Part shown: positions 1-17,733 of the stretch, one piece after another
Layout of the letters: every line of letters begins with the position of its first letter
Numbering within the stretch: position 1 is the stretch's first letter
DNA from: Promethearchaeota archaeon
GTDB lineage: Archaea; Asgardarchaeota; Thorarchaeia; Thorarchaeales; Thorarchaeaceae
NCBI GenBank assembly: GCA_027031765.1
Contig: JALVPN010000115.1
Coordinates: 1-18,250, forward strand
Direction: 5' to 3'
Length of the DNA stretch: 18,250 bases
Translations under genes and position numbers: made by a program
Notes under the pieces: generated by a model
What the model saw: only the letters and a program-made list of their open reading frames with translations
Database searches by the model: none
What the model was told of the DNA's origin: nothing

Positions 1-209
1 AGGTCGACGGGATTGTCACCGCCTGCGAGTTCTGTGACATCCAGCTCACGCAGGTCCAGTTCGACGAGGAGGTGCACCCGGCAGAACGGATACCCGTCCT
101 AACACTTCCACAACTCTTGGGCCCAGCCATGGGCATTGAAGAGGACAAGCTCGGCATCGACCTCAACCGGATCAGTCCACGTGGCATTCTCGAGGCGTTG
201 GAGGCATGA
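1..209 (+). CDS. hdrB: Heterodisulfide reductase subunit B, C-terminal part (runs off the 5' edge)
   Basis: Manual translation from position 3 gives VDGIVTACEFCDIQLTQVQF...IPVLTLPQLLGPAMGIEEDKLG...LEA*, with TGA at 207-209. This matches the end of the second CCG domain of HdrB (IVTACPFC...IPVLHYxQLLGLAMG). The stop overlaps the hdrA start (ATGA). Confidence 0.85.
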   Translation, partial: VDGIVTACEFCDIQLTQVQFDEEVHPAERIPVLTLPQLLGPAMGIEEDKLGIDLNRISPRGILEALEA

Positions 210-1960
210 TGATGACAGCACAGGAAGAACCAAGGATTGGAGTGTTTGTCTGCCACTGCGGCCACAACATTGCGGGAGTCGTCGATGTTGTCCGGGTGGC
301 CGAGTATGCAAAGTCACTGCCACACGTGGTGTTCGCTACGGATGAGATGTTCATGTGTTCGGACGCAGGACAGCAACTCATCCGGGACAAGATTGCAGAG
401 TATGACCTGAACAGAGTGGTCGTTGCAAGCTGTTCACCACGGATGCACGAGCCCACGTTCAGGCGCGTTGTGGAAGAGGCCGGCCTCAACAGGTACCTCT
501 TCGAACAGGTGAACCTCCGGGAACATGTCTCGTGGTGTCACATGCGAGAGCCTGAGCTCTCCACCGAGAAGGCGATTGACCTAGTCCGCATGGCAGTTGC
601 AAGGGCGGCCAAGCTGGAGGGGCTGCCTGTCAAGAGCGTCAAGGTGACCCCTCGCACGCTCGTTGTCGGTGGCGGGATAACCGGCATCCGGGCCGCCCTC
701 GACATCGCAGACCGTGGCTTCGAGGTCGTCCTTGTGGAGCGTGAGCCCAAGTTGGGCGGCAACCTGGTCAAGTGGAACCATGTTTTTCCGGTGGACAAGA
801 GTGGCAAGAAGATACTCGGCCCGTTGATAAAGCGTGTCAAGTCCCATGAGAGGGTGCGGGTGTTCACCAACAGCGAGGTGTCCGACTTTGACGGTTATAT
901 CGGCAATTTCGTTGCCACCATCCGCAACAACAAGACCGGCAAGGAGGAACAGGTCGAGGTCGGTACGGTGATAATCGCCACGGGGTTCAAGGCATATGAG
1001 CCCGTGGAATACTATGCCTACGGCCAGTCCCCAGACATCATGACCCTCGCGGAGTTCCACCAGCGCCCAGGCGACGAGCTGCTGAAGCGGCCCAGTGACG
1101 GCAGGCCTGTCAAGAAGATAGTATGCATCGGCTGCGTGGGCTCGCGGGAGCCCGGCAAGCAAGGCCACGAGCACTGTTCACGGTACTGCTGTACGGCGGT
1201 GGCAAAGACCGCTGCTGATATCCGGTCCGACGTAGAGGAGGTCGTTGTACTCTACCAAGACGTACGGACATACGGCAAGGGCCACGAGGAGTTCCACCGC
1301 CTTGCCAGGCTCCGATACGTCATGTACAGCAAGTTCCCACGGGAGGAGAAGCCGCAGGTGACCGTGGCCGACGGCGAGCTGACGGTCAAGTGGCACGATG
1401 TCCTCTCCGGCGACGACTTCGAGTTCCACCCTGACATCATTGTCCTGGCATCGGCAATGGTGCCACCGGACGGCATAGACGACGTCGCCAAGATGTTCGG
1501 CCTGACACGCAGTGCTGACGGCTTCTTCAACCCAGAACACATCAAGCTCGCACCACTGACCACTCACACAGCCGGCGTGATGATTGCAGGCACCGCACAG
1601 GCTGCAAAGAACGCCACGGAGTCGGTGGTCGATGCCAGTGGCGCAGCTGCAAAGGCGGTCGGCCTGATGGCACGCGGTGAGGTGGAGATCGAGTCCACGA
1701 CAGCCCAGGTGATTGAAGACCTCTGTTCGTCGTGTCACACCTGCGTCGCGGCCTGTCCCTACGGCGCGATTGCCATGGACGAGTCGAAAGACCCGCCAGT
1801 AGCACATGTGACATCGGCAAAGTGTCACGGGTGCGGCACGTGTGCTGCTGCCTGCCCGAGCAGTGCCATTCTGATGCTCCACTCAACAGATGAGCAGATC
1901 ATGGCCATGGTGGAGGCATTCCTGACACCCGCACCCGAGATTGGAGGAGGTGAGGCGTGA
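206..1960 (+). CDS. hdrA: Heterodisulfide reductase subunit A (FAD, Fe-S), short form lacking the inserted ferredoxin domain
   Basis: N-terminal RIGVFVCHCG..NI, MCS and SCSPRMHE motifs; FAD motif VVGGGITG; CIGCVGSR...CSRYCC cluster motif; two C-terminal CxxCxxCxxxCP motifs. GGAGG at 200-204 precedes three tandem ATGs (206/209/212), so the true start may be 209 or 212. Confidence 0.95.
   Translation: MMMTAQEEPRIGVFVCHCGHNIAGVVDVVRVAEYAKSLPHVVFATDEMFMCSDAGQQLIRDKIAEYDLNRVVVASCSPRMHEPTFRRVVEEAGLNRYLFEQVNLREHVSWCHMREPELSTEKAIDLVRMAVARAAKLEGLPVKSVKVTPRTLVVGGGITGIRAALDIADRGFEVVLVEREPKLGGNLVKWNHVFPVDKSGKKILGPLIKRVKSHERVRVFTNSEVSDFDGYIGNFVATIRNNKTGKEEQVEVGTVIIATGFKAYEPVEYYAYGQSPDIMTLAEFHQRPGDELLKRPSDGRPVKKIVCIGCVGSREPGKQGHEHCSRYCCTAVAKTAADIRSDVEEVVVLYQDVRTYGKGHEEFHRLARLRYVMYSKFPREEKPQVTVADGELTVKWHDVLSGDDFEFHPDIIVLASAMVPPDGIDDVAKMFGLTRSADGFFNPEHIKLAPLTTHTAGVMIAGTAQAAKNATESVVDASGAAAKAVGLMARGEVEIESTTAQVIEDLCSSCHTCVAACPYGAIAMDESKDPPVAHVTSAKCHGCGTCAAACPSSAILMLHSTDEQIMAMVEAFLTPAPEIGGGEA
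1946..1953 (+). promoter_or_regulatory. Shine-Dalgarno site for mvhD, inside the 3' end of hdrA
   Basis: GGAGGTGA lies just upstream of GTG 1957/ATG 1960. Similar GGAGG motifs precede 2404 (2388-2392), 2639 (2628-2633) and 3571 (3556-3560), consistent with a coupled operon. Confidence 0.7.
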
Positions 1961-2403
1961 TGGCCACAACAGCCGAGACCAAGACCCAAGACGAGCAGTG
2001 GGAGCCGAGAATCCTCGCCTTCTGCTGCAACTGGTGCTCATACGCAGGGGCTGACCTTGCCGGCACCAGCAGGATACAGTACCCTACGAACGTGAGGATA
2101 ATGCGGGTGAACTGCACCGGGCGGATTGACGTTGACTTCATCCTTGCTGCCCTGGAAAAGGGCGCTGACGGTGTCCTTGTCAGCGGCTGTCACCCCGGTG
2201 ACTGTCACTACACGAGCGGGAACCTGAAACTACGGGCGCGGTGGGCCCTCTTGGAGGAGGCCCTCAAGCAGGCGGGTGTTGACCCCAGGAGGGTGAGGCT
2301 CCAGTGGGCGAGCGCATCTGAGGCACAGGCCTTTGCTGATGGTGTCCGGATAATCGTAGACCAGGTGCGCAAGCTTGGCCCGATGAAGGAGGCGTGGAAG
2401 TAG
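1957..2403 (+). CDS. mvhD: F420-non-reducing hydrogenase iron-sulfur subunit D ([2Fe-2S]), all-Cys form
   Basis: FCCNWCSYAGADLAG, RVNCTGRID and ADGVLVSGCHPGDCHY motifs; lies directly after hdrA. Confidence 0.95.
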   Translation: MMATTAETKTQDEQWEPRILAFCCNWCSYAGADLAGTSRIQYPTNVRIMRVNCTGRIDVDFILAALEKGADGVLVSGCHPGDCHYTSGNLKLRARWALLEEALKQAGVDPRRVRLQWASASEAQAFADGVRIIVDQVRKLGPMKEAWK

Positions 2404-2637
2404 ATGCGGGACTTCGACCGGTACTTCTACCAGAAGCGCACGGATGTACAGCGCCAGCGTGCGGCCATTGAGCAGGTCCTCAAAGGCGGCCCCAGCACGG
2501 TGAGCAGGATTGCAGAGGCCACCGGTATGCCGAGCAGCCTTGTCGTCTGGAACCTGATGGGCATGCTCCGGTGGGGCGTGGTCGACGTTGCCGGAGAGGA
2601 AGAGCACGAGCTGGTGTACACCCTGAAGGAGGTCTGA
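2404..2637 (+). CDS. Small winged helix-turn-helix protein inside the hdr/mvh operon, function unknown
   Basis: 77 aa. The pattern IEQVLKGGPSTVSRIAEATGMPSSLVVWNLMGMLRWGVV followed by a beta-hairpin (VAGEEEHELVYTL) is wHTH-like. It has its own SD and abuts both neighbours. Confidence 0.8.
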   Translation: MRDFDRYFYQKRTDVQRQRAAIEQVLKGGPSTVSRIAEATGMPSSLVVWNLMGMLRWGVVDVAGEEEHELVYTLKEV

Positions 2638-2638
2638 C

Positions 2639-3574
2639 ATGATGGCTGAACCAATACCAGTCGCAATGGGACAGGGCAGCTCCTGCTGGGGCTGTTTCCA
2701 GAGCCTTGTGGACATGCACCTCCGGCTTGCTGATGTCCTACCACTCCTCGACATCAAGTACTGGCAGGCAGTGGTGGACTACAAGCTGGAAGACCTTGAG
2801 AACTACCCCGACAAGTCGATAGTGGTCGGCCTGTACGAGGGGATGGCCCGGACCGAGGAGGACGTCCACCTGCTGAAGCTCATGCGTCAGAAGTGTAAGG
2901 TCCTCGTGGCCTTCGGCACGTGCTCCTGCTACGGTGGCATCCCGGGCCTCGCCAATGCCTGGGACATCGAGGAGTGCTACGATGTCAAGTTCAGGGAGAA
3001 CAAGACATTCTCCGGTGGCAAGGTGCCGACAGAGAACCTGCCACCCATCGAGCCCGTGGTGCATCCGAACAGCGACTACGTCGACTTTGACATCTACCTC
3101 CCCGGCTGCCCGCCCACGTCAGACCTCATTGTGAAGGCAATCACTGCCCTGCTTGAGGGCAAGGAACTTGAGCTGCCGACGTACACGGTCTGCCACTACT
3201 GTCCACGTGAGAAGAAGGAGACCCCAATACCTGAGATCCTCCGGCCGTTCAGGGGGAACGCAGACCCGGACAGGTGCCTCCTCGAACAGGGGTACATCTG
3301 CCTCGGCTCTGCCACCTGGGGCCTCTGTGAGGGACAGTGCGTCAGCAAGGGCGTCACATGCAGGGGCTGTTTTGGCCCGCCACCACCCATCACTCAGGAC
3401 CAGGGCGCAGCCGCCATGTCGATGCTCGGGACATATGCACCCCTGGAGCCGGAGAAGCTCAAGGAACAGGTGCCCGACCCGCTTGGCTGCTTCTACCGGT
3501 TCACCTATCCTTCCAGTCGTCTGGGGCGGATGCGGATACGTCGGGAGGAGCTCAAGGAGGCGAGTGAGGAATGA
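2639..3574 (+). CDS. mvhG: F420-non-reducing [NiFe] hydrogenase small subunit
   Basis: SSCWGC, EG, AFGTCSCYGGIPGLAN and YLPGCPP proximal-cluster motifs; C-terminal VCHYCPR...CLLEQGYICLG...CEGQC...CRGCFGP. Confidence 0.95.
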   Translation: MMAEPIPVAMGQGSSCWGCFQSLVDMHLRLADVLPLLDIKYWQAVVDYKLEDLENYPDKSIVVGLYEGMARTEEDVHLLKLMRQKCKVLVAFGTCSCYGGIPGLANAWDIEECYDVKFRENKTFSGGKVPTENLPPIEPVVHPNSDYVDFDIYLPGCPPTSDLIVKAITALLEGKELELPTYTVCHYCPREKKETPIPEILRPFRGNADPDRCLLEQGYICLGSATWGLCEGQCVSKGVTCRGCFGPPPPITQDQGAAAMSMLGTYAPLEPEKLKEQVPDPLGCFYRFTYPSSRLGRMRIRREELKEASEE

Positions 3575-4887
3575 CTGAGGACAGAGTGATACGAGTAGAG
3601 CCCGTCACCCGACTGGAGGGGCACGGGGCACTGACCATCCGGCTCGGCCCGGGCAACAAGGTCAAGGACATCCAGTTCAATGTGAGCAGTACGCGGTTCT
3701 TCGAGAAGTTCCTTGAAGGCCGCCCGATGGAGGAGGCCCCACGGATTGCACCGCGTATCTGTGGGATATGTCCCATACCACATCACCTCGCATCCGTGAA
3801 GGCGGTCGAGGCAGCATGGGATGTCACCCCACCTCCAGCAGCCATCAAGCTCAGGCGCTTGCTCATTGAGGCCAAGCAGCTCTCCTCCCACGCAATCCAC
3901 TTCTACGCCCTCGCAGCCCCCGACTTTGTGTTCGGGCCGTTCGCAGATCCAGGCGTCCGGAATGTCGCTGCTGTCCTGAAGCACCTGCCCGACGTTGCCG
4001 TACAGGCAATCAAGCTGATGGAGTTCGGTCAGGAGCTGTGCAGGGACATCGGCGCAAAGGCAATCCACCCGACGACGGCAATCCCTGGGGGCATGCTCTC
4101 ACCCCTCAGTGAAGGGGACCGCGACAAGTGGCTGAGGCAGGTCCCGGAGATGATGGAGAACATCAACAAGACGGTGGAGCTGGCCAAGAAGGTCGTCAAC
4201 GACTACATTGATGTGGTCACCAAGGTGGCTGTGACACCGACCTACTACATCGGCCTCAGCAACGACGGCGCCCTCGACATCTATGACGGCACCGTCAGGG
4301 TAATGGACCCGGAGGGCAAGATAGTGGCCGACTTCAAGCCCCCAGAGTACACCGAGTACTATGGCGAGTACATACCAGACCACTCATATGCGACGCACAT
4401 CTACTACAAGCCAGCAGGCTACCCCGACGGCATCTGGAGGGCCAACACACTGGCCAGGTGCAACGTCAACGAGCGCATGGCCACCCCGCTCGCCGATGAG
4501 GCGCTCAAGGAGATGCGTGGACTCGTCGGCCGGCCGTCCCATCACACCTTTGCGTACCACTACGCACGGGTGGTCGAGATGGTGCAGGCTGCAGAGATGA
4601 TACAGCGGCTCCTTGAAGACCCCGAAACCGTCAGTACGGACGTCAAGCTCTCTGATGTGGAGCCAAAGGCAGGTGACGGTGTCGGGATTGTGGAGGCCCC
4701 ACGTGGGACGCTGCTCCACAACTACGTCAGCGACGACAGGGGCATGCTCGTCCGTGCCAACCTGATAGTCGCCACCAACAACAACATCGCTGGGATTGAG
4801 AAGTCCCTGATGGACGCCGCCCGCTTCGTATTCGAACAGGACGGCCTGAAGGAGCTGAGCCTCCCCGAACCACTCGTCAAGACATAG
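3571..4887 (+). CDS. mvhA: Group 3c [NiFe] hydrogenase large subunit lacking the C-terminal Ni-binding motif (VhuA-type split subunit)
   Basis: EPVTRLEGHG, the L1 motif RICGICPIPHH, and VEAPRGTLLHNY / NLIVATNNN are present. There is no L2 motif (DPCxxCxxH) before the TAG at 4885-4887. Confidence 0.93.
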   Translation: MTEDRVIRVEPVTRLEGHGALTIRLGPGNKVKDIQFNVSSTRFFEKFLEGRPMEEAPRIAPRICGICPIPHHLASVKAVEAAWDVTPPPAAIKLRRLLIEAKQLSSHAIHFYALAAPDFVFGPFADPGVRNVAAVLKHLPDVAVQAIKLMEFGQELCRDIGAKAIHPTTAIPGGMLSPLSEGDRDKWLRQVPEMMENINKTVELAKKVVNDYIDVVTKVAVTPTYYIGLSNDGALDIYDGTVRVMDPEGKIVADFKPPEYTEYYGEYIPDHSYATHIYYKPAGYPDGIWRANTLARCNVNERMATPLADEALKEMRGLVGRPSHHTFAYHYARVVEMVQAAEMIQRLLEDPETVSTDVKLSDVEPKAGDGVGIVEAPRGTLLHNYVSDDRGMLVRANLIVATNNNIAGIEKSLMDAARFVFEQDGLKELSLPEPLVKT

Positions 4888-4906
4888 GCCCAAGGACTGA
4901 TGGAGA

Positions 4907-5059
4907 ATGACCGAAGAAATCCCTGAAGGACTGCTCAACCTCCTTGAGATGGTTGTGCGGTGCTATGACTGCTGACTATCATGCGGCGCTCATCTCGTCA
5001 TCGTTGACGAGGAGGGCCGCGAGGTAGTCCGGAAGGAGCTCGTGACCGGCGGTGGATGA
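4907..5059 (+). CDS. vhuU: VhuU-type selenocysteine-containing C-terminal peptide of the hydrogenase large subunit (TGA 4973-4975 = Sec23)
   Basis: Manual translation: MTEEIPEGLLNLLEMVVRCYDC[TGA]LSCGAHLVIVDEEGREVVRKELVTGGG*. It aligns with the MvhA C-terminus (..NLMEMVIRAYDPCLSCATH..), with TGA exactly at the first Cys of the L2 motif. The frame stays protein-like after the TGA and a SECIS-like hairpin follows. Confidence 0.9.
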
Positions 5060-5117
5060 AGGCCCGGCCAAAAGGTGCGTGCCGGGCTGGACGGCCCCGC
5101 AAGGGCCCGCCAGTCAC
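5042..5117 (+). promoter_or_regulatory. Eukaryote-like SECIS element (core 5056-5092) overlapping the vhuU stop codon
   Basis: AUGAA (5056-5060) and GGAC (5089-5092) give tandem G.A/A.G pairs. An 8-bp stem GGCCCGGC/GCCGGGCU (5061-5068/5081-5088) leads to an apical loop with AAAA (5070-5073). A basal helix GUGAC-C-GGCGG/CCGCC-A-GUCAC pairs at 10 of 11 positions. The core is 80 nt downstream of the in-frame UGA. Folded by eye only. Confidence 0.75.
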
Positions 5118-5138
5118 GCTCCTCCCCCACCTTTTTCT
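5118..5138 (+). terminator. Possible archaeal pyrimidine/oligo-T terminator of the hdr-mvh operon
   Basis: GCTCCTCCCCCACCTTTTTCT directly follows the SECIS. T5 tracts are rare in this GC-rich window and the next gene is convergent. Confidence 0.4.
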
Positions 5139-5346
5139 ATGACACGCTACACTGTGGGCTGTCAGGCAGGGCCCGCACCCGGGTCGGCCTGTTCCCCTTT
5201 CCAATCTCTAGCTGTGGGCCCGGGCCCTTCCATGGAGTACCACAGTGATTGCCGGTGGTGTCCAGACCTCGTGCCGGCATGTCCACCACACTGTCACCCA
5301 GTCGGCTCTCGATAGTCGGGGGGTATGAGAGTGTACCAGTGTTGAG

Positions 5347-6312
5347 CTAGGTCCACTGTGACTTTGACCACACGACCGCTATCCCGTTGGCCATGCCCAC
5401 GTAGAGCCACCGCCCGTCCACGGACAGCGACGTGACTGGCCCTTCCTGCCTGATCACCGCGTTGCACTCCAAGCTGTCCTTGTTGAAGACCCGCACCGTC
5501 CTGTCGTAGGAGCCACTGTAGACGAACTCCGCATCAGTTGTAAGGGCCCGGACATCCGAGTCGTGCCCGCTGAGTGTCCCAACGTGGTGCAGACCTGGCA
5601 GAGTGTAGACTAGCACCACATTGTCCCTCGATGCACTGAAGAGGCGTCCTTCATCCACCTCGATGACATACGATGCGTTTCTCGGGCCCTGGTATGGCAG
5701 TACCCCCTTCGTCAGTGGCCGTGGGACGACAGAAATCCCATTCTCCTCCCCTGCAGCGTAGAGATTCTCGTTGTCTGCTGCAAGGGCACAGACGCGGTCG
5801 CAATAGTCATAGAGGACAGTCTTGATATCAAGCGTCCTGCGGTCACGGATCTCAACGGTCGCACCTGATGCCACGTACAGGTGCCTGTCATCGAGTGCGA
5901 GGGCACGTACAGGCCCGGGGTATCCCCCTGATGCCAGCAGCCACTTCCAGCCGGGAAGTGACCAGGCATGGAGCGCTTCAGAACTCAGACCTGCGAGTAC
6001 CCTGTCCTCGTCAACGAGGAGGGCAGACACCGTGCCAGAGAGCCGCCACATACTGCTGTCATAGTGCCATGACCCGACCTTGAAGACCTGGACTCCGTTG
6101 CCGCGGGCCACGAACACCAGCTGGCCTGCTCTCGCTATGTTACTGACGGGCCCTGTAAGCCCCAGCATGACACGTTCCGGCGGGACGAGCCGGGCCTCTG
6201 GCACGTATTTGTGCCGTGACGACACCAATCTGGCTTCCCTCGTGAGGCCTCCCTTGTCACAATGAAAGAAAAAACCTTCGAATACATGTCCTCCTCCCAT
6301 GCTCATCCACAC
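5347..6312 (-). CDS. WD40-repeat beta-propeller protein
   Basis: About 7 repeats of ~40 aa, clearest at LSGHDSDVRALTTDAEFVYSGSYDRTVRVF and LFSASRDNVVLVY. The start is uncertain: the first ~28 codons overlap an AT-rich tract (6261-6275), so TTG 6228 or GTG 6225 may be the real start. Confidence 0.85.
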   Translation of the reverse strand: MWMSMGGGHVFEGFFFHCDKGGLTREARLVSSRHKYVPEARLVPPERVMLGLTGPVSNIARAGQLVFVARGNGVQVFKVGSWHYDSSMWRLSGTVSALLVDEDRVLAGLSSEALHAWSLPGWKWLLASGGYPGPVRALALDDRHLYVASGATVEIRDRRTLDIKTVLYDYCDRVCALAADNENLYAAGEENGISVVPRPLTKGVLPYQGPRNASYVIEVDEGRLFSASRDNVVLVYTLPGLHHVGTLSGHDSDVRALTTDAEFVYSGSYDRTVRVFNKDSLECNAVIRQEGPVTSLSVDGRWLYVGMANGIAVVWSKSQWT

Positions 6313-6397
6313 ATGTGGCCCGTGACACCGTGACAGCCACCAGGACGCTACTTGTAGCCCCTCCCACCGTCTGCACCTGCGTCCTGTCCCTCCTACC

Positions 6398-6405
6398 TTT
6401 TATGC
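6398..6405 (+). promoter_or_regulatory. Possible TATA box for the DDAH gene
   Basis: TTTTATGC about 30 nt upstream of ATG 6436, a spacing that fits a leaderless or short-leader archaeal transcript. Confidence 0.35.
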
Positions 6406-6435
6406 GCTGGGTGTGCACCGTCCTTGCTGTCCAAG

Positions 6436-7194
6436 ATGTCACTCGCATACCGTTCGGCCATCGTCCGGCCACCGTCACCAGCTCTGGGACAGTGCGTGTC
6501 ATCCCATCCACTCGCCCACACAGTGGACATACGGAGGGCGCAGGCGCAACACCAAGCATATGTGGACGCCCTCGTCAATCTCGGTCTTGATGTCACAGTG
6601 CTGCCACCCCTCCCACTCCCTGACTCGTGCTTTGTGGAGGACACGGCGGTCGTCCGTGACAACCGGGCAGTCCTCACACGGCCGCGCCCTGAGAGCCGCC
6701 GTCCCGAAGTGGACGCAATCGCACCGGTGCTCGGAGAGCACTTCGACTGCGTGCGTGTCGAGGCGCCGGCAACCCTTGAGGGCGGCGATGTCATCCACCT
6801 GTCAGACCGCCTCGTGGTAGGGGTGTCATCAAGGACGACGCCAGACGGGGTGGAGCAGCTCCGCACCCTCCTTGGCGTCCACGTCGACACGGTCACTGAC
6901 ACGACCATGATGCACCTCAAGTCGCACGTCACTGCTGTAAGCGACACGTTGTTCGTGTGTACACCCCGGTTCACGGGACACCGGGCCCTGCGGGCCGAGG
7001 AGGTGGTGGTCGTCCCACCGCCGGAGTCGCATGCCGCAAACACGCTGACCATCAATGGTACTGTGCTTCTGCCTGCGGGCTGTCCGCTGACAACACACGA
7101 GTTACGGGAGCGCGGCTTCGATGTTGTCGAGCTTGAGATGGACCAGTTCAGGCTGTGCGACGGGGCACTGACATGCCTGTCCGTATTGTTCTAG
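6436..7194 (+). CDS. ddah: N(G),N(G)-dimethylarginine dimethylaminohydrolase (amidinotransferase superfamily)
   Basis: AIVRPP, FVEDTAVV, SRRPEV, LEGGDVI, MHLKS (catalytic His) and DGALTCLS (catalytic Cys) motifs. ATG 6436 is preferred over TTG 6424. Confidence 0.9.
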   Translation: MSLAYRSAIVRPPSPALGQCVSSHPLAHTVDIRRAQAQHQAYVDALVNLGLDVTVLPPLPLPDSCFVEDTAVVRDNRAVLTRPRPESRRPEVDAIAPVLGEHFDCVRVEAPATLEGGDVIHLSDRLVVGVSSRTTPDGVEQLRTLLGVHVDTVTDTTMMHLKSHVTAVSDTLFVCTPRFTGHRALRAEEVVVVPPPESHAANTLTINGTVLLPAGCPLTTHELRERGFDVVELEMDQFRLCDGALTCLSVLF

Positions 7195-7266
7195 CCCTCA
7201 CGACCAGCGACTGGTTGACCAGGTCATAGTACGAGCCACTGGACGACGTCGCCAGTCCGCAGAGGG

Positions 7267-8631
7267 TCAAACGGCACGTGTGTCGTGACTGTCTGGCTGG
7301 TGGGCATCGTCGTCACGTCGTGTTTCCAGTGCGCACGAGAGCCGGACGTGAAAACGTGTGCCCACGGCCTTCTCACCCTTCTCAATGACCTCAGCATGCA
7401 CATCGCAGTTGCACATGGACGAGAGCGCCTTTATCAGGAAGAGGCCAAGGCCCCCCGTTGGCGGCATCTGGGGCACCGCACCTTGCTCGGAGTTGAGGTA
7501 CTCCAGTGCTGCGCTGGACAGGCCGCCTGCATCGTCTTCGATTATCAGTGTCACGCTCCTGCCGTCTGTCCTATGGGCTATGCCTATGCGGGTGGCACCG
7601 TGTTTCAGTGCATTGTCGAGGATGTTCCACACGACCTGCCTGAGTAGCTGGTTCGATGATACGGGGATCTCTCCAGTAAGCGTGTTCTCAATACGGGCGT
7701 CCCTGTCCCTGTATACCCCCATGAGGGGTCTCAGGACACTGTCCACCATCTGACGGATATCAATGGTCTCGAAAGTGCTCTGTAGATGTGCCACCTGAGA
7801 GCTGACCTCGCGCATGTACTCTACGAACTTGGACGCGTTCGCAAGGGTGGCGGCAGCGACTTCGAGCCACTCGTGCGAGTCGGGCCCCCAGTCACGTGCC
7901 AGTTCCAGCGACTGGGATACCAGGTGCAGGTAGCCGCGGATGTCGTGCTGCACAATCCCTGAGAGTAGGAGCGCCACTTGGAACTGCGTCTGGAACCGCT
8001 GGTCGGTGACCTTCACGAACAGTGCGAACAGACATGCCCCCTGTACCGAGACCACAGTCCCCTGCAATATGACAAGTGCAGTCATGGCCTCTCTGAAGAC
8101 AAGGCCCACAGTCGGGGCCACAAAACAGCTCGCGGCCCACAACAGCGCCGCCGTCCTAGCAATGGCGTTCAACCAGCCCGGATGTCTGTCAACGGTTGGT
8201 AGCGACCTGTAGAAGTAGATGCCAGCCACACCAGCATAGAGCAGCGGCGGGGCCAACATCAGGGGTGTCGGTACACCCAGGACCACCGTTACCGCACTGT
8301 ACGCTGCGGCACCAACACCCATGGTCAGATACGTCGCCACGGAAAACGGTGCCCGCCCGGCTCCAAGCGAGCCGTTGAGCAGCAGTGTCGACCCGAACAT
8401 GAGCCCGCACGCTGCTACGGCATCGAACACGTCCGGCTCCATCCCCAAGTTGAACACGCTAGGCCCGGTCATCGACGCCAGCACCAGCCAGCCCACGGCC
8501 CAGAAGCGCATCCGCGGCCCAGTAGCGTATCGCACGAAGCCTGTGATTATGATGAGCACGAATGTCAGTACCACCTCTATTCCAAGAAGCGTCGTCACAT
8601 GCACCGGGAGCAACTCCTGCAAACCAGTCAC
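7267..8631 (-). CDS. Membrane-bound sensor histidine kinase with about 7 TM helices
   Basis: Seven hydrophobic segments in the first ~205 aa; H-box QHDIRGYL; N-box NILDNALKH; G1-like EDDAGG; G2 GGLGLFL. No response regulator in the window. Confidence 0.88.
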   Translation of the reverse strand: MTGLQELLPVHVTTLLGIEVVLTFVLIIITGFVRYATGPRMRFWAVGWLVLASMTGPSVFNLGMEPDVFDAVAACGLMFGSTLLLNGSLGAGRAPFSVATYLTMGVGAAAYSAVTVVLGVPTPLMLAPPLLYAGVAGIYFYRSLPTVDRHPGWLNAIARTAALLWAASCFVAPTVGLVFREAMTALVILQGTVVSVQGACLFALFVKVTDQRFQTQFQVALLLSGIVQHDIRGYLHLVSQSLELARDWGPDSHEWLEVAAATLANASKFVEYMREVSSQVAHLQSTFETIDIRQMVDSVLRPLMGVYRDRDARIENTLTGEIPVSSNQLLRQVVWNILDNALKHGATRIGIAHRTDGRSVTLIIEDDAGGLSSAALEYLNSEQGAVPQMPPTGGLGLFLIKALSSMCNCDVHAEVIEKGEKAVGTRFHVRLSCALETRRDDDAHQPDSHDTRAV

Positions 8632-9185
8632 CAGTCCCTATCTACTGTAGGCCCACACCACCGTGCTATCCATGGCCCCGTGCTCTCTCACCTGCGTTCC
8701 CAGACCCGCCGCCAGATGCATGTGTGGCCTGCACGCGGCCCACCGACCTCTGTTCATGTGTCGTTTCACATGCACTCTCTCCCACCACTCCATTAAGCAT
8801 TATCTGTGACCGTCCCCCTCAGCAGACAGCCTACGGCCCGAATGTCGCTCAGTGGACACGCCCACTCTCAACCGATGAAGAGTCCGCCAACATAACCTCT
8901 CGCCCACATCCGTCGTCCCACATCCAGTCGTCTGCCAAAGTCGTCCCTCGTGCCCTCACCTATGGCTATGTCTCATATGTGGTGTCCCCCACAGGGCTGC
9001 CTGCACTCACGGGCCGAGGTCTGGTTGCAGCACATGCCGACACTCGATGTCCCGTCAATCCTGTCAATAAGGCGCCGCGTGTGCAGTACCCGTCGTGGCT
9101 GGCACCCAGAGAGTTGTCGTCACGCCTGTCCTGAGATACCAAGGTCATGGACCATGTGGTACTGGTAGTGCCGCAGTGGAGAGCC

Positions 9186-9200
9186 GGAAAAGGTTAATAT
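9186..9200 (+). promoter_or_regulatory. Possible BRE + TATA promoter for the first FG-GAP surface-protein gene
   Basis: GGAAAAGG followed by TTAATAT, the archaeal BRE-TATA arrangement, in an otherwise GC-rich intergenic region. Confidence 0.45.
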
Positions 9201-9420
9201 CGTACTTTCAGCAACAGCTACGGCGGACAAGGAACGGAACGGTGGGCCAGTGATGCGGAGAGTGCTTTCGGGGCTCCACGCACTCCTTGCTGGGTGTCCT
9301 CTTGGGGCCAATGCGCGTCGACGGGAGCAGTTTCGAAACTGCAGGCAGGAGACCTGCGATAGGAAGTGTATGGGTCGTACTATGAACACACAGTATGCCC
9401 GTGGTGTGCGGACAGTACGC

Positions 9421-10698
9421 ATGCGGGTGCGCTGGCCACTGGTTGTTGTGGTGGTGCTTGTCGTGGCCCTGCAACTGGGTGTAGGGACTTCCTCAAGCAT
9501 GAGCCCCAGTGCCGGCACCAAGGGGCCTGCGGGCGACACCCAGCCCCATCAGCACCGACAACTTGGGCTGAGCGAAGCAACCGAGCTGAGCCCTCTCTAT
9601 ATCAGTGAGATGGACTACCACTTCATAACCCACGGGGAGTGCTTCCGGTCAGCTGAAGACCCTGACAAGTCCTACCTGCTTGCCATGAGCGTCGTTGACT
9701 CTGGTTCCGACATTGAGGTGCCAGTGTCAGTCTGGGCCTACAACCATACCTCAAGTACAGTCGACCAGATCTCCTCGACGTATCCAGTGCCCTCGGGCAC
9801 AATGTACCTCCATCCCCTCAGTGCCACATACATGGGGCACCAGGTGCTCTGGGGGTACTCGTATGTTCATGGTGTGAGGAAGGTCGCGCTCTACTACTGG
9901 GACGGCACGGACTTCGTAAAGTTCACAAACGAGATTACGCTTGGGGGTGGCGTCTGGACCTGGCACCACTACGAGTACGACTTCAACCATGATGGCATCC
10001 CCGACTTCACCTTCGCATGTTCCTACGGTGGTGGTCAGGTGGGCGTCATCACATGGGACGGTAGTTCCACAATCTCAATCGCATGGCAACTCGACTTCGG
10101 TCTTACGACTCACAGCGGCAGCATTGGCGATATCGACAACGATGGAAAGCCCGAAATCGTGGCCCTCTCGTGGACCGACGAGTCTGTGAAAATCATTGAC
10201 TGGACTGACAACTTCGACTTCAGTCTGCTCACGTCATACGACTTGGCGGCACACAGCATGACCACCGGTGGTGTGGATGCAGTTGTCGGGGATGTTGACA
10301 ATGATGGCGTATCCGAGCTGTTCGTCAGTTGCACAAAGAGCGGAACGCCATGGCTGTATGTCTTCCAGTACACGGGCGGCGAGCTCGTGAACGTAGACAG
10401 CTATCTCCTCGGGACCCGCGAGTTCCCAGACTTCTCGACGGTAGACATCTGTTTCTTCGACCAGGACTCGGTCCCTGATATCTTGGTAGGTACAAATGAG
10501 TCCTTCGAGATACTGAACTGGGACAAGACCACCGGGTTCTCGTGCAAGTACTACTATGAGAACCCCTATGCCCACCACGACCCTCCGCCACAATATGATG
10601 AGTTCAACTACTACATCATCCCGGCAAACTTGGACGATGACGACCAGTCTGAGGTGGCAGTTTCATTCGCCACTTACTCTACTGAAACAAATGCGTAG
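9421..10698 (+). CDS. Exported FG-GAP/VCBS beta-propeller; N-terminal part of a 9421-12366 gene interrupted by an in-frame TAG
   Basis: Signal-peptide-like MRVRWPLVVVVVLVVALQLGVGTSSS at ATG 9421 (upstream starts at 9250/9253/9382 are possible). FG-GAP Ca loops: YDFNHDGIPDF, GDIDNDGKPEIV, GDVDNDGVSELF, FFDQDSVPDILVG, NLDDDDQSEVAV. Confidence 0.8.
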   Translation: MRVRWPLVVVVVLVVALQLGVGTSSSMSPSAGTKGPAGDTQPHQHRQLGLSEATELSPLYISEMDYHFITHGECFRSAEDPDKSYLLAMSVVDSGSDIEVPVSVWAYNHTSSTVDQISSTYPVPSGTMYLHPLSATYMGHQVLWGYSYVHGVRKVALYYWDGTDFVKFTNEITLGGGVWTWHHYEYDFNHDGIPDFTFACSYGGGQVGVITWDGSSTISIAWQLDFGLTTHSGSIGDIDNDGKPEIVALSWTDESVKIIDWTDNFDFSLLTSYDLAAHSMTTGGVDAVVGDVDNDGVSELFVSCTKSGTPWLYVFQYTGGELVNVDSYLLGTREFPDFSTVDICFFDQDSVPDILVGTNESFEILNWDKTTGFSCKYYYENPYAHHDPPPQYDEFNYYIIPANLDDDDQSEVAVSFATYSTETNA

Positions 10699-10728
10699 TA
10701 CCACACCCTTGGTGTCTTTGACAGCGAT

Positions 10729-12366
10729 GTGTCTTTTGACGACGACTCCGACGGGATGCCTAACAAGTGGGAAGAATCTCACGGTCTGGACTACTCCAAC
10801 AGCAGTGATGCATCCCTAGATGGGGACAGGGACGGTCTGACAAACTTGGAGGAGTACCAGAACGGCTGTGACCCTTGGAACAACGACACAGACGCTGATG
10901 GTCTTGCCGACGGGTGGGAGGTCGCCAACGGCCTGAATCCTACTGTTGTTGACACGGATGGCGATGGCCTCGACGACAACTACGAGGTGACGCATGGCCT
11001 CGACCCGTTGAGCCCTGACACCGACGGCGATGGGATGCCTGATGGCTGGGAGGTTGCACACGGTTTCAACGCTACGTACTCTGACGATGGGGTGCTGGAC
11101 GCAGATGGTGACGGTGTGTCCAACTCTGAGGAATACCTGAACGGCTGTGACCCGCTCAAGGCTGACACGGACAATGACGGCCTCCCAGACGGTCTTGAGC
11201 TAGCCTTGCCGCTCAACGCGACCGTGCCGACTGACGGATATGCGGTGTGGGGGCTGCTCGGTGTGTGCGCTGGTGTTGTGGTGCTGGCAGGTCGCCGATG
11301 GCGCGACAAGCAGCTACACCCGTGGCGCCATGACCCCGGAGTGGCCTCGGTCAAGGACGAGGTGCTGAGGGTGCTTGAGTGGTTCAAGATCATGGCGCAG
11401 CGTGCGGCGGAGCTTGAGGACGCACATGACTACAAGGGTGCAGCCCGCCTTCTTGAAAAGCTGCTGAGCATCATTCAGAGAGGACGCAACGACATCATGG
11501 TTATTGGTCGCGATAGGTATGAGGCGCGGGTGGCAGAGCTGGAATGCGCGTTGTGGCGCTGCAGAGTCAAGGCCCACATAGCTGATGCACAGGCCATTGT
11601 TGACAAGTTGAAGTCACGTACGGCCCACATCTGGGATGACGGTTCCCTCCACAAGGCCCTCAAAGATGTGGATGGTGCCCGTGAAGCGGCATCGGCTGAG
11701 CTGAAGGCTGCGCGTGAGGCCGTAGCTCAGGGCCGACTTACAATTGAGGCCGGGTGGGTCACCCAGGCCGAGCATGACCTTGATACGCGCCTGAACGATG
11801 TCACCCAACAGATCCGGAAACGCCTGAGCGCACTCTCTACGGTCAGGGCCAAGGTGGATGAGTTGGAGGATGTGGTGGCGGCCAGCATGGGCAGCGACCC
11901 TCTGGAGGACCGGATTGCTCGGCTGGAGTCTGCACTGGGGGCGCTGCAGCAGGCTGTGAAGTCGCTCGGGGCCGGTCTGGATGTGCTCTTTTCTCCGCAG
12001 GCTGACGCGAAACGTCGACTTGAGAAATGGCAGGTGGACTTGGCGCACGACCTCGGCCTTGACATCCTGGAAGAGGCCTACCTCCGGCTCAACTATCTGA
12101 AGTCACTGGAGGAGCTGACGGGTGAAGGGCCTATTGACCCGAGAATGGAGGAGGCGGCTGCCCGGGATGCCATTGAAGGCGTGCTCATTGAGGCAAGGCG
12201 CGCAGTTGCAGAGGTCGAGCGGATGGATGAGAGCTCAGGTGAGCGCTGGGCCATCGTGGAGGAGGTAAGAGACCGCCTGCTCATGGCCCAGGACCTTGCG
12301 CGACGGTTTCAGTTCACAGAGCTCGAGGGCGAGGTCACGCGCCTGCTGGAACGGCTGTATGAATAG
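10729..12366 (+). CDS. TSP3-like repeat stalk, single TM and long alpha-helical cytoplasmic tail; in-frame continuation of 9421-10698
   Basis: Seven DxDxDG..xE repeats, a TM (YAVWGLLGVCAGVVVLAG) with a basic RRWRDK stop-transfer, then ~350 aa of amphipathic helices. Same frame as the upstream ORF, with no signal peptide or SD of its own. Confidence 0.8.
   Translation: MSFDDDSDGMPNKWEESHGLDYSNSSDASLDGDRDGLTNLEEYQNGCDPWNNDTDADGLADGWEVANGLNPTVVDTDGDGLDDNYEVTHGLDPLSPDTDGDGMPDGWEVAHGFNATYSDDGVLDADGDGVSNSEEYLNGCDPLKADTDNDGLPDGLELALPLNATVPTDGYAVWGLLGVCAGVVVLAGRRWRDKQLHPWRHDPGVASVKDEVLRVLEWFKIMAQRAAELEDAHDYKGAARLLEKLLSIIQRGRNDIMVIGRDRYEARVAELECALWRCRVKAHIADAQAIVDKLKSRTAHIWDDGSLHKALKDVDGAREAASAELKAAREAVAQGRLTIEAGWVTQAEHDLDTRLNDVTQQIRKRLSALSTVRAKVDELEDVVAASMGSDPLEDRIARLESALGALQQAVKSLGAGLDVLFSPQADAKRRLEKWQVDLAHDLGLDILEEAYLRLNYLKSLEELTGEGPIDPRMEEAAARDAIEGVLIEARRAVAEVERMDESSGERWAIVEEVRDRLLMAQDLARRFQFTELEGEVTRLLERLYE
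10738..11232 (+). repeat. Seven intragenic 66/81-bp TSP3-like (DxDxDG) coding repeats
   Basis: Units such as DTDADGLADGWEVANGLNPTVV and DTDGDGLDDNYEVTHGLDPLSP. Confidence 0.85.
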
Positions 12367-13046
12367 TGATGTGCATGTGGGTCAAGGCCTGTGCACCAGC
12401 TGGCCGCCACTTGGCCCGGCCACACTTGGGACACCTGGTACGGCCCCGTGCGAGAGAGTCGAGATGGGGCTTCCCGCAAGTCCCTCAGGGGGTGGTCGGG
12501 CGCCCCATAGCTCTCCGGTGGCAGTACGGTGCTGGGCTGCGATGACGACCACATCCGAGTTTCAGAGCCTGCGCTCAGCTCGTTTCCCAATGGCACCCGG
12601 CGTGCTCCTCGCTGGTGCTGTAAGTCGGGGTGCTGCGGACGCACTCAACGCTGTCACTGGTGGTGTCCGTGAAGACGGGATGCCGCCGGCTGATGACAGA
12701 CATGCGGACAGGTAGCGACGGAGTGGTAGTCGGGCTCTGACAGGTACTGACGGAGCATGGGGTACGCGGGTGTGCCGACGTAGGTCAAGTCTACTGCGGA
12801 CAGGCTGGAGGGGCGCTCCGTGGCTGTACCTGCGATGGGGAGCTGCTGGTGCTTTGGGGCTGGGAGTGTAGTGCGTCGGTGTTGTCATGGCGACCGCAAC
12901 ACTAATTGCGCCCGTTGTGTCAGGGGTGTGTGACCACTGGCAAGGTGCGCCGCGTCCTGATATGCAACGTTTCAACTGACGGTGCGTAGACATGAGGGGG
13001 GCTTGGACGCCAGGTGTGCTGACGGCGGCCCGCACATTGCTGGGGC

Positions 13047-15677
13047 ATGGGAAGTGATCAGTTGTACAGGCACTACTCCGTATTGTTCGCAGTGTCCGTC
13101 CTGATAGCGGCATCGGCAGTTGTTGGCTGCACATGGAATCCTGTCATGTCCTGTCGAGAGTGTGGCTCTGGGGCTGGCCCAGTAGGGAGCGCAGCACCTG
13201 CAGATGGCGCTACCGTCCTCTGGAGCAGCCCGGCCGGGGGCGATGTGAAGTCGTCCCCTGCCCTCTACGATGTCAACGGTGATGGGGTTGTGGATGTTGT
13301 TGTCGGGAGCTGGAATGGTAGCCTGCTCCTGATGTATGGCACCAACGGGTCGGTGTGGGGAAATGTGGTCACCACGGGCCCCATAATGTCCTCACCCACG
13401 CTGGGGGCCTTGACCGGTGATGGCAGTCTTGACATCGCGTTCGGCGACCTGAACGGCAACTTTCTCGTGGTGGACGGTACGAACCTCTCAGTGTTGCTCG
13501 CCATCTCCTTCTCTGGTGCTGTCCTTGCATCGTCTGCAGTTGGTGATGTTGACGGTGATGGTGACATGGATGTGACAGTGGGCACTGAGGGGAACTATAC
13601 GTGCGCCATCGATGCAGCAAACGAGTCTGTGACGTGGGAGTTCAGTACCCAAGGGGGTGTGTTGTCTTCTGCTGCCCTTGGTGATGTCGACGGTGACGGT
13701 GACATGGATGCCGTTTTCGGGTGTTGGGACCGGAGGGTCTACGCCCTCGACGGTGCCACTGGCAATGTTCTATGGTCATACGAGACCGGTGATGAGGTAT
13801 GGTCCTCGCCTGCACTGGGTGATGTGGACGCTGATGGTATCTGTGAGGTGGTCATCGGCAGCGAGGACGGACACGTATACGTACTGGAAGGTGACACCGG
13901 CAACACGGTCTGGTCACATGATGCTGGGGCCGCTGTCACAGCCTCACCTGCGCTTGGCGATGTCGATGGTGACGGTGACCTTGATGTGGTCGTGGGTGCC
14001 TTTGATGGCTGGATGTATGCTCTTGATGGCACGACAGGCTCGCTCCTGTGGTCCTTCAGTGCTGGCGCCGGGACTGTTTCATCGCCTGCGCTCGCCGACC
14101 TCAATGGCGATGGGGGCCTCGACGTCGTCTTCGGCGACGGCAACGGCCGGGTATGGGCACTCATGGGCACCAACGCCAGCGTCCTGTGGTCCTTCCAGAC
14201 AGGAGGTGTTGTGGGCTCGTCCCCGTCCGTCGGGGACATCGATGGCGATGGTGACCTGGACGTGGTAGTGGGCTCTGATGATGACACGGTATACGCACTC
14301 GAGGGCTCCTCGGGCCCGGGCCGGGTATACTGGGAGGGCTCGCGCGGTGACATGGCTTTCCGGAGGACGGGATGCCTCGACGACATAGACCCTGACGGCG
14401 ACATGCTCTCGGACTACTCTGAGGCACTCTATGGCACCGATAGCAGTGACGTGGACACCGACGACGACGGTCTTGCTGACGGGTGGGAGGTCGCCAATGG
14501 CCTCGACCCTACTGTTGTTGACACAGATGGCGACGGTCTCGACGACAACTACGAGGTGATCCATGGCCTCGACCCGCTGAGCCCTGACACCGATGGCGAT
14601 GGGATGCCTGACGAGTGGGAGGTGTCGCATGGCCTCAATGCAACAGATGCCAGTGATGCTGCACAGGACCCCGACCATGACGGTCTTTCCAACCTCGGGG
14701 AGTACCAGCACGGGTGTGACCCGGGTAATGCTGACACGGATGGTGATGGTCTGGCCGATGGCTGGGAGGTCGCCCACGGCCTGGATCCAACCGATGTGGA
14801 CTCGGACGGCGATGGTATGCCTGACGGCTGGGAGGTCGACCATGGCCTCAATGCCGGAGATGCCGGGGACGCAGCACTTGACGGTGACAACGATGGTCTG
14901 ACAAACCTTGCTGAGTACCAGAACGGGTGTGAGCCCGGGAATGCTGACACGGATGGTGATGGTCTGGCTGACGGGTGGGAGGTGGCCAACGGCCTCGACC
15001 CCACTGTCAGTGACAGCGACAGTGACGGCCTGATTGACGGGTGGGAGGTGGAACATGGTCTTGACCCAAGTTCCAACGACACGGACGATGATGGCCTCGC
15101 TGATGGCTGGGAGGTCGCCCACGGCCTCAATGCTACTGACACCGACACCGATGGTGATGGTCTCTCGGACAGCTGGGAGGTGTCTGAGGGCCTGGATGCG
15201 ACCAGCGACGACAGTGACGGTGACGGCATGCCTGATGGCTGGGAGGTCGCCCACGGTCTTGACCCGGCAAGTCCGGAGGATGCTGCACTGGACCCTGATG
15301 GTGATGGCCTGACAGGCCTCGAGGAGTACGTGAACGGTTGCGACCCTCGTGACAATGACACTGACAGCGATGGCATGCCTGATGGCTGGGAAGTGGCCCA
15401 TGGCCTGGACCCGACCGATGCCACAGATGCAGCAGCTGACAGTGACAGCGATGGCCTGTCGGCTCTGGAAGAGTACCAGCATGGCAGTGACCCACGGGAC
15501 ATCGACACAGACGACGACGGTCTCTCTGATGGCTGGGAGGCGTCAATGGGGCTGGATGCTGCCTCCCCCCTAGACGGCTACGCCATCTGGGCGTTTCTCA
15601 CTGCTGCCGCCATTGTCCTCGTCGTTGTCATCGCGTACTCCCTGCGGCGACGTGGACTGTTCCCACAGCGTCCATGA
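13047..15677 (+). CDS. Type I membrane surface protein: FG-GAP/PQQ-like beta-propeller, 17 TSP3-like repeats, C-terminal TM
   Basis: Hydrophobic N-terminal signal (SVLFAVSVLIAASAVVGC); eight ~44-aa blades of consensus LWS...SSPALGDVDGDGDLDVVVG..DG.VYALDG; Asp-rich repeats; TM YAIWAFLTAAAIVLVVVIAYSL; short basic tail RRRGLFPQRP. Confidence 0.92.
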   Translation: MGSDQLYRHYSVLFAVSVLIAASAVVGCTWNPVMSCRECGSGAGPVGSAAPADGATVLWSSPAGGDVKSSPALYDVNGDGVVDVVVGSWNGSLLLMYGTNGSVWGNVVTTGPIMSSPTLGALTGDGSLDIAFGDLNGNFLVVDGTNLSVLLAISFSGAVLASSAVGDVDGDGDMDVTVGTEGNYTCAIDAANESVTWEFSTQGGVLSSAALGDVDGDGDMDAVFGCWDRRVYALDGATGNVLWSYETGDEVWSSPALGDVDADGICEVVIGSEDGHVYVLEGDTGNTVWSHDAGAAVTASPALGDVDGDGDLDVVVGAFDGWMYALDGTTGSLLWSFSAGAGTVSSPALADLNGDGGLDVVFGDGNGRVWALMGTNASVLWSFQTGGVVGSSPSVGDIDGDGDLDVVVGSDDDTVYALEGSSGPGRVYWEGSRGDMAFRRTGCLDDIDPDGDMLSDYSEALYGTDSSDVDTDDDGLADGWEVANGLDPTVVDTDGDGLDDNYEVIHGLDPLSPDTDGDGMPDEWEVSHGLNATDASDAAQDPDHDGLSNLGEYQHGCDPGNADTDGDGLADGWEVAHGLDPTDVDSDGDGMPDGWEVDHGLNAGDAGDAALDGDNDGLTNLAEYQNGCEPGNADTDGDGLADGWEVANGLDPTVSDSDSDGLIDGWEVEHGLDPSSNDTDDDGLADGWEVAHGLNATDTDTDGDGLSDSWEVSEGLDATSDDSDGDGMPDGWEVAHGLDPASPEDAALDPDGDGLTGLEEYVNGCDPRDNDTDSDGMPDGWEVAHGLDPTDATDAAADSDSDGLSALEEYQHGSDPRDIDTDDDGLSDGWEASMGLDAASPLDGYAIWAFLTAAAIVLVVVIAYSLRRRGLFPQRP
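13215..14306 (+). repeat. Eight ~132-bp FG-GAP/PQQ-like blade repeats
   Basis: Loops DVNGDG, ALTGDG, DVDGDG, DVDGDG, DVDADG, DVDGDG, DLNGDG and DIDGDG recur about every 44 aa. Confidence 0.85.
14388..15572 (+). repeat. Seventeen 66/81-bp TSP3-like coding repeats with higher-order organisation
   Basis: 22-aa and 27-aa DxDxDG units. The stretch AATGCTGACACGGATGGTGATGGTCTGGC is identical at 14727 and 14940, 213 bp (71 aa) apart. Confidence 0.9.
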
Positions 15678-15996
15678 GGTCACCTGTGAGTACCCAGGAC
15701 CAGCAGTCAGGTGCTTGGGATGGGCCCGCATACAGGGCCACTCCCTCTCTGGCCGTGTGAGCAGTAGGGTACATGTCTGGTCTCCGAGCCGCAGTAGCGG
15801 AATGAGCCCTCTGTGCAGGTCGAGCTGTGCATGGCCCACAGGCGGGCTGGTGGGCAAGCCGGTGACCAGAGCGGCAACGTATCATGTACCAGTGCCGTAC
15901 ATGGAGACGTTGTATCGCCATGGGCTACTCGGTTGTGTGACCCCGTGGCGCGGAGGTGACGCCGTCCCTGTAGTGTCCGGACTCCTATCTCACTCC

Positions 15997-16356
15997 TCAA
16001 CCAGTGTCCTGTCCCGGCACTGCAAAGTGTTCCTCCCTCACGGAGTACGTCACGACAATGAAGCTCAGGACTGCGCTCACTACGAGGCCAATGACCCCCT
16101 CCAGAAAGAGCACCACCTGGCCGAACCCTGCAACAAGTGGGGCCACAAGGAACCAGATGACAATGCTCGGCAGCACTGACAACTGGAGTGCGGTCTCGGT
16201 ATATGAGGAGAGCCCGGTAGAAGACCCAATCGGTGTCGCACGCCGCAGGAGCAGCCGTGCTATGCCGTAGCTCCAGACCACGGTGGCGGCCCACGTTCCG
16301 AGGGCGAAGAGGAGGAACTGTGATCCTGTGAAGGCACTCATCGGTCGTGCTCTCAC
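15997..16356 (-). CDS. Small hypothetical membrane protein (about 3 TM)
   Basis: 119-aa ORF with three hydrophobic segments. The start is GTG 16356 or ATG 16341. I do not recognise the family. Confidence 0.6.
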   Translation of the reverse strand: MRARPMSAFTGSQFLLFALGTWAATVVWSYGIARLLLRRATPIGSSTGLSSYTETALQLSVLPSIVIWFLVAPLVAGFGQVVLFLEGVIGLVVSAVLSFIVVTYSVREEHFAVPGQDTG

Positions 16357-17561: not shown

Positions 17562-17725
17562 CAGGTGGGCGCAGCGTGAGGGTACGTCAGGGCTGGACAT
17601 CATGTACGCACTTGGACTCACAGGGCCCGTGGTTGGCAGAGAGGTCACGGGTCCGGGGCATACAACACCACATGCCCCCAAGCTGCTCCTGTCAGCAGCC
17701 CTCCGCTGCCCGGTGCGCACACATG

Positions 17726-17733
17726 TTTATAAG
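17726..17733 (+). promoter_or_regulatory. TATA box upstream of ssb
   Basis: TTTATAAG is the best match to the archaeal TATA consensus in the window and lies between GNAT and ssb. Confidence 0.55.

Follow-up and report, generated by a model that had tools for sequence, protein, structure and literature searches.

Two studies describe the selenocysteine insertion (SECIS) elements closest to the one analysed here. Mariotti et al. (2016) defined the lokiSECIS, and in their main text the AUGA of the Lokiarchaeota VhuU.1 element is also the stop codon of its gene (PMC4989117). According to the same text, lokiSECIS elements lie too near UGA stops for recoding at these codons to be structurally possible (PMC4989117). 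Huang, Xiao and Zhang (2024), covering more than 400 Asgard genomes, report in their main text that Thorarchaeia have type I elements for frhA and vhuU, and type II for selD; their methods state that UGA stops often overlap AUGA in Asgard elements, and SECISearch3 is described there as finding nothing on Asgard elements (PMC11227280). Asgard SECIS elements have been proposed to link archaeal and eukaryotic selenocysteine decoding. A layout in which the stop codon serves as the core is already published in principle, and the vhuU element described below is a further Thorarchaeota case of it.

The vhuU gene and its operon

The window is an 18,250-nt stretch (contig JALVPN010000115.1, positions 1 to 18,250, assembly GCA_027031765.1) from a 2.95-Mb MAG of 59% GC assigned to the Thorarchaeaceae. 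The genes that concern us, and the two UGA codons of vhuU, are as follows:

206-1960, plus strand: hdrA, 584 aa, Cys form with no in-frame UGA
1957-2403, plus strand: mvhD, 148 aa, Cys form with no in-frame UGA
between mvhD and vhuG, plus strand: a small ORF
2639-3574, plus strand: vhuG, matching NCBIfam VhuG below the curated cut-off
3571-4887, plus strand: vhuA (NF041785, 484 bits, below the cut-off of 800)
4907-5059, plus strand: vhuU, 50-codon selenoprotein subunit of the Vhu/Mvh [NiFe] hydrogenase, from its translation and NCBIfam NF041786
4973-4975, plus strand: in-frame Sec UGA of vhuU, TGA in 41/41 orthologues and inside the conserved DCULSC(G/A)AH
5057-5059, plus strand: stop UGA of vhuU, from the translation

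The best NCBIfam matches in the window are VhuA, VhuU and VhuG, each below its curated cut-off; the VhuU family NF041786 matches vhuU with an E-value of 1.6e-14 and 53 bits, under a cut-off of 70. The closest relatives of vhuA are all labelled Thorarchaeota, and vhuU lies downstream of it after a spacing of 19 nt. The translation of vhuU, MTEEIPEGLLNLLEMVVRCYDC-U-LSCGAH-LVIVDEEGREVVRKELVTGGG, contains the motif RCYDC-U-LSCGAH, followed by a 21-residue tail that ends in VTGGG. This tail is removed by the maturation protease. The usual nickel-binding motif is D-P-C/U-x-x-C-x-x-H; in this VhuU (window 4958-4993) it reads D-C-U-x-x-C-x-x-H, and the extra Cys preceding Sec is kept in 41/41 Sec-vhuU orthologues. 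Sec forms of HdrA and MvhD are common in Lokiarchaeia; the window has none, both genes being Cys forms, and internal stops are absent from all seven FlpD-domain genes of the genome. Going downstream from the Sec UGA at 4973, it is 59 nt to the first paired base of the lower stem described next and 84 nt to the stop UGA.

A predicted SECIS with the stop codon in its core

The 3′ end of vhuU very probably forms a SECIS of the Asgard 'eukaryote-like' type, whose predicted AUGA core contains the stop UGA. The element extends over about 90 nt (5034-5123), and its predicted fold is a three-way junction of helices P1, P2 and P3:

5034-5051, plus strand: 5′ strand of the lower stem P1, inside the coding sequence (codons K-E-L-V-T-G-G)
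5054-5060, plus strand: 5′ half of the proposed kink-turn core, G-N-A-U-G-A-A, with G, A, U, G, A and A invariant in 40/40 sequences
5056-5060, plus strand: AUGA-A, containing the stop UGA 5057-5059
5061-5068 with 5081-5088, plus strand: upper stem P2, 8 bp (seven G-C and one G.U)
5069-5080, plus strand: apical loop of 12 nt, CAAAAGGUGCGU, with A5072 and A5073 invariant
5089-5092, plus strand: 3′ half of the core, G-G-A-C, with A and C invariant and G in 39/40
5093-5107, plus strand: P3 hairpin with a YGCAA-type loop; 4 pairs, 94% paired, 2 with compensatory changes
5108-5123, plus strand: 3′ strand of P1, in the 3′ UTR
5131-5135, plus strand: T5 run directly 3′ of the element, read from the sequence

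In P1, RNAalifold pairs 5034-5036, 5038, 5042-5043 and 5046-5050 with 5109-5123, with two-sided changes in 7/11 pairs, and GUGAC (5042-5046) pairs with GUCAC (5113-5117). The proposed core contacts are a closing pair G5054-C5092, a bulge at 5055-5057 (N-A-U) and two sheared pairs, G5058.A5091 and A5059.G5090. At the sequence level, the pattern expected of a kink-turn agrees with the invariant G5054-C5092, the N-A-U bulge and the G.A and A.G pairs; the C-stem of this putative kink-turn has one clear invariant pair, positions 5053/5093 being without clean covariation. P3 follows the core and precedes the 3′ strand of P1, which makes the base a three-way junction. The outer part of P1 (5034-5041 and 5119-5127) brings together a near-invariant purine run, GGAAGGAG (codons R-K-E), and CUCCUUCC in the 3′ UTR, a pyrimidine run that resembles an anti-Shine-Dalgarno sequence. 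T-rich tracts trail the element in most orthologues. The T5 run at 5131-5135 is probably an archaeal transcription stop, in which case the SECIS would be nearly the entire 3′ UTR.

The initial annotation had placed AUGA-A, the 8-bp stem, GGAC and the GUGAC/GUCAC pairing exactly. Its 'AAAA apical loop' has to be redrawn as the 12-nt loop, which merely begins with an A-run, and its simple basal helix as a three-way junction, since the hairpin 5093-5107 is inserted there.

Taken singly, the sequence proves nothing. Its folding z-score against shuffles ranges from -0.9 to -1.9, not significantly more stable, as the region is GC-rich. The loose ATGA-stem-loop-GA pattern occurs at 59 sites genome-wide, so the bare motif is not specific, and among the long ORFs of the genome 56% end in TGA and 12% in A-TGA. 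Rfam SECIS families gave no match in a scan of the window with the gathering cut-off, nor in a permissive scan of 4850-5400 that admitted E-values as high as 10; the Rfam covariance model for eukaryotic SECIS does not recognise the vhuU element. This agrees with the reported failure of SECISearch3 on Asgard elements. The sole Rfam match in the scans, PhotoRC-I at E 3.2, is a chance hit.

The evidence is instead comparative. Our comparison set comprised 55 loci with VhuA relatives, 40 of which, together with the window, carry a Sec-type vhuU beside vhuA; these 41 orthologues belong to Thorarchaeota and to single genomes of Helarchaeota and Atabeyarchaeia. The gene ends in A-UGA-A in 41/41, and after it come a stem, an xAAA loop, the second strand and (G/A)AC, although counts of this kind overstate independence because the orthologues are related. 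Four loci with a fused Cys-type MvhA (L049-L051 and L055) have a TAG stop and no ATGA-stem motif after it. Split Cys-type VhuU controls do not occur among the 55 related loci, and in L014, L032-L037 and L047 the vhuA-like genes have no adjacent vhuU.

Run on an alignment of 40 of these sequences, RNAalifold recovered unaided the three helices P1, P2 and P3, with compensatory changes (two-sided and pair-keeping) in 18/23 pairs. In P2 such changes occur in 8/8 pairs, with 94% of its cells paired. Over the whole alignment 92.6% of cells are paired, compared with 83.7% in column shuffles, and 0/500 shuffles matched the observed alignment on any of five measures; sliding the partners by 1-3 columns brought pairing down to 32-54%. 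Ten positions are invariant in the 40 sequences: G5054, A5056, U5057, G5058, A5059, A5060, A5072, A5073, A5091 and C5092. The sole core exception, at G5090, is an AA variant in one orthologue (L045).

A leave-one-out covariance model (R2), built from 39 orthologues with the window excluded, finds the element at 5052-5093 with 45.5 bits and E 3e-11, while the runner-up in the window reaches 12.4 bits. With model R1, which included the window's own sequence, only the vhuU site scores high genome-wide, no other candidate exceeding 15.3 bits. No better SECIS has therefore emerged elsewhere in the window or, with R1, in the genome. On these grounds, the initial claim that the core UGA is the vhuU stop holds in 41/41 orthologues, and its placing of the 5′ basal strand in coding sequence is backed by covariation and by P1 as drawn by RNAalifold. 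Its reading of the element as an eukaryote-like SECIS is likewise supported by conservation and covariation of core and stem, by the codon rule set out below and by the same design in selD.

The RNA also leaves its mark on the coding sequence. Because the core letters are invariant, the last sense codon of vhuU is always G-N-A: GGA in 34 sequences, GAA in 4, GCA in 2 and GUA in 1. The final Gly codon is GGA in 34/34, whereas other vhuU Gly codons are mostly GGC or GGT, and in the 7 sequences with a non-Gly last residue the codon is GCA, GUA or GAA. This rule would fit a kink-turn closed by G5054-C5092, with N-A-U bulged and G5058.A5091 and A5059.G5090 sheared. If the kink-turn needs G-N-A-U-G-A, the RNA dictates the stop codon as well as the last sense codon, which can then encode Gly, Ala, Val or Glu. 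Such a constraint would be tolerable in a tail that the protease removes. Further upstream, synonymous sites are frozen where paired and free within the P1 bulge: the paired Val at -5 is GTG in 36/37, Leu at -6 in the bulge uses five codons, and at Thr -4 ACC and ACT alternate opposite G. The synonymous-site pattern supports the earlier suggestion that the cleaved tail is free to serve the RNA structure.

The selD element and orphan copies after cysS

Beyond vhuU, the genome encodes tRNA-Sec, a PSTK-like gene, SepSecS, SelB (contig C38) and a Sec-SelD (contig C31). The loci relevant here, all in the source genome (G000), are:

contig C107, 9851-12764: cluster of the PSTK-like gene, tRNA-Sec and SepSecS
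contig C107, 10649-10739, complement: tRNA-Sec
contig C31, minus strand, Sec codon at 47294 and stop TGA at 46304: Sec-selD (locus L070)

An MvhD-domain gene lies upstream of the cluster on contig C107 (1100-1468).

The genome's Sec-selD ends in ...uuc cca UGA g, and its UGA lies within the AUGA core of a type II SECIS. After the core come the upper stem, an AGAA bulge, the mini-stem that defines type II, GA, GGA, a CGCAA hairpin and CGGUCUC. GGA pairs with UCC just 5′ of the bulge, and CGGUCUC pairs with GAGACCG in the coding sequence. The R1 search of the genome for further copies returned vhuU only, missing the selD element because it is type II; the latter was found through the selD gene itself. 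Among the Sec-selD genes of 21 Thorarchaeota genomes, the stop is TGA in 21/21, preceded by A in 13, G in 7 and C in 1. RNAalifold on these 21 sequences again gives P1, P2 and P3, together with a 3-bp C-stem of the putative kink-turn, and 12/19 pairs are compensated. The C-stem is the 3-bp UCC/GGA and occupies the place where vhuU has its closing pair. The design common to vhuU and to 21/21 selD is a stop UGA in the core, a P1 that reaches into the coding sequence, and a P3 hairpin. The element lies 84 or 96 nt away from its Sec codon in vhuU but 990 nt away in selD, which implies that it acts over variable distances.

The covariance model also picked out vhuU-type SECIS-like elements 14-32 nt downstream of cysS (cysteinyl-tRNA synthetase) at four sites in other Thorarchaeota genomes:

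G098, contig C1, 677400-677442, minus strand: cysS-linked copy L107
G103, contig C60, 1669-1711, plus strand: cysS-linked copy L108
G037, contig C8, 59466-59508, minus strand: cysS-linked copy L109/L111
G131, contig C29, 19533-19575, plus strand: cysS-linked copy L100

The cysS genes at these sites have a TAA or TAG stop and no in-frame UGA, and one of the four sites holds just a 3′ remnant of cysS. The copies retain AUGA-A, the stem, a UAAAG loop, GAC, the YGCAA hairpin and a GCUGGU lower stem, and their stem sequences differ yet still pair. In appearance they are duplicates of the 3′ end of vhuU, last codons T-S-G-G included. No selenoprotein gene adjoining the copy was seen in L111, and in the source genome no such element follows cysS. 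Near-identical elements after UGA-less cysS genes indicate that the fold can occur where no Sec codon is evident for it to act on. Should these orphan copies prove functional, they would suggest that SECIS RNA has a second role, in regulation, linking Cys-tRNA synthetase to the Sec system.

Two UGA codons in one gene and the known SECIS classes

How might one gene use UGA both as a Sec codon and as a stop? When UGA 4973 is in the A site, the leading edge of the ribosome would be some 40 nt short of P1. The element, at least 59 nt downstream, would still be folded at that moment and, by analogy with its family, could direct SelB and Sec-tRNA(Sec) to insert Sec at 4973. For UGA 5057 to reach the A site, P1, the kink-turn and part of P2 would have to be opened first. 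Since the ribosome would have melted the SECIS before arriving at 5057, there would be no SECIS in cis, the release factor would win and the codon would be read as a stop. The geometry of this proposal is sound, and we have moderate confidence that unfolding by the ribosome settles the stop/core overlap. It is essentially the published proximity argument with the unfolding step spelled out. As for a role of the overlap itself, it could reset the element, limit read-through, or be merely tolerated.

The last of these options leads to the reading that the element is a true SECIS whose coincidence with the stop has no function of its own: the frame simply runs to the first in-frame stop, which is the invariant UGA, and any stop placed slightly upstream would terminate equally well. 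TGA is, after all, the stop of 56% of the long ORFs in the genome. A Methanococcus SECIS keeps its function when relocated to a place directly after the coding region, with a flexible distance to the UGA (PMC9622424), and the main text of the lokiSECIS study gives various stop codons for Lokiarchaeota VhuD genes (PMC4989117). However, an earlier UAA or UAG occurs in 0/41 vhuU and 0/21 selD, despite tails that vary in sequence and length, and the 5′ strand of P1 lies inside the coding sequence in both genes alike. Together these observations suggest that the overlap itself is under selection, even though shared ancestry inflates the counts, and we consider a coincidence without function somewhat unlikely.

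Far less probable is that the region is a terminator or an mRNA 3′-end stability element of the hdr-mvh operon in which the AUGA and GA motifs are coincidental. GC-rich hairpins followed by the T5 run at 5131-5135, the T-rich tracts in orthologues and the frequency of the loose SECIS pattern (those 59 genomic sites) would all suit it. Yet a terminator has no need of an invariant G-N-A-U-G-A-A, loop AA and GAC alongside covarying stems, and the same core follows selD, the other selenoprotein gene identified in the genome. For transcription termination in archaea, as is generally known, a T-run suffices. The two roles are in any case not mutually exclusive. Finally, the idea that UGA 5057 is at times decoded as Sec or read through, so that a VhuU with a C-terminal extension results, is almost certainly wrong: the frame does stay open for 62 further codons past 5057, but indels downstream of the element are not multiples of three, coding conservation is absent, no second SECIS-like match lies downstream and the transcript probably ends at the T-run at 5131.

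We are left with a SECIS whose core is the stop codon as the preferred reading. A bolder version would hold that the Thorarchaeia SECIS is a translation-gated, three-way-junction kink-turn that overlaps the end of every selenoprotein ORF and is reset by terminating ribosomes, with the YGCAA hairpin forming part of the recognition surface and the orphan cysS copies being regulatory. Taken as a whole, this version is doubtful.

The central idea is already in the literature and no new question is opened, but the window provides a clean, well-supported Thorarchaeota example of a SECIS and sharpens the published picture in three respects. Stop and core coincide in 62/62 genes (41 vhuU and 21 selD, related as these are); the last codon of vhuU appears to be fixed as G-N-A by the RNA; and the predicted fold is a three-way junction with a conserved hairpin. 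Judging by the main texts of the two earlier studies, the strict stop/core conservation, the G-N-A rule, the junction hairpin and the orphan cysS copies are apparently new details. Both main texts are silent on any hairpin or junction located between core and lower stem (PMC4989117, PMC11227280); that of the lokiSECIS study makes no mention of a lower stem reaching into the coding sequence (PMC4989117), and that of the Asgard survey describes neither the G-N-A last-codon rule nor the strictness of the stop/core coincidence (PMC11227280).

Among the known classes, the SECIS of Methanococcales and Methanopyrus (GAA_A) resembles the vhuU element in lying just 3′ of the gene and in that GAA (5058-5060) and A5091 flank a GC-rich stem. 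The spacing in M. maripaludis fruA, where 88 nt separate the UGA from the element, has been reported (PMC9622424). The vhuU element nevertheless falls outside this class, although GAA and A are present. Its upper stem is 8-9 bp long instead of three consecutive G-C pairs and its loop is 12 nt rather than short, by the definition in the main text of the Asgard survey (PMC11227280); furthermore, the AU preceding GA and the G preceding A are conserved here, and the loop has conserved As. With the eukaryotic SECIS it shares the AUGA/GA quartet of a predicted kink-turn, the unpaired apical As, a presumed effect on a distant UGA exerted from the 3′ side, and the logic of a minimum spacing. It differs from the eukaryotic element in its shorter upper stem, its overlap with coding sequence and its three-way-junction base. 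To our knowledge, no SBP2 is known in Archaea.

The likeness to the Lokiarchaeota VhuU.1 lokiSECIS, as described in the main text of that study, is this: AUGA directly precedes a stem of about 9 bp, the loop of about 11 nt starts A-rich, and the coding sequence ends within the element, AUGA doubling as the UGA stop (PMC4989117). The core is AUGA_GA here and AUGA_AA in Loki, and the last loop base is U here, whereas it is an ultraconserved G there (PMC4989117). The host, too, differs, being a Thorarchaeota genome of 59% GC. The element also fits the type I model in the main text of Huang et al., which has a GA_[G/A]A core, usually after AU (here A5056-U-G-A5059 and G5090-A5091), 7-15 bp in the upper stem, no more than 2 of them mismatched (here 8 bp), and 8-20 nt in the loop, whose unpaired As stand close to the 5′ side (here 12 nt); the model places the element at or just beyond the 3′ end of a gene that contains an in-frame Sec UGA, the genome having Sec machinery, as is the case here (PMC11227280). 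The loop of the window begins with CAAAA, in contrast to the G[U/G]AAA typical of Thorarchaeia in the same text, while the lower-stem pairs of that model, [U/C]GG_C[C/U][A/G], correspond to 5047-5049 paired with 5110-5112 (PMC11227280).
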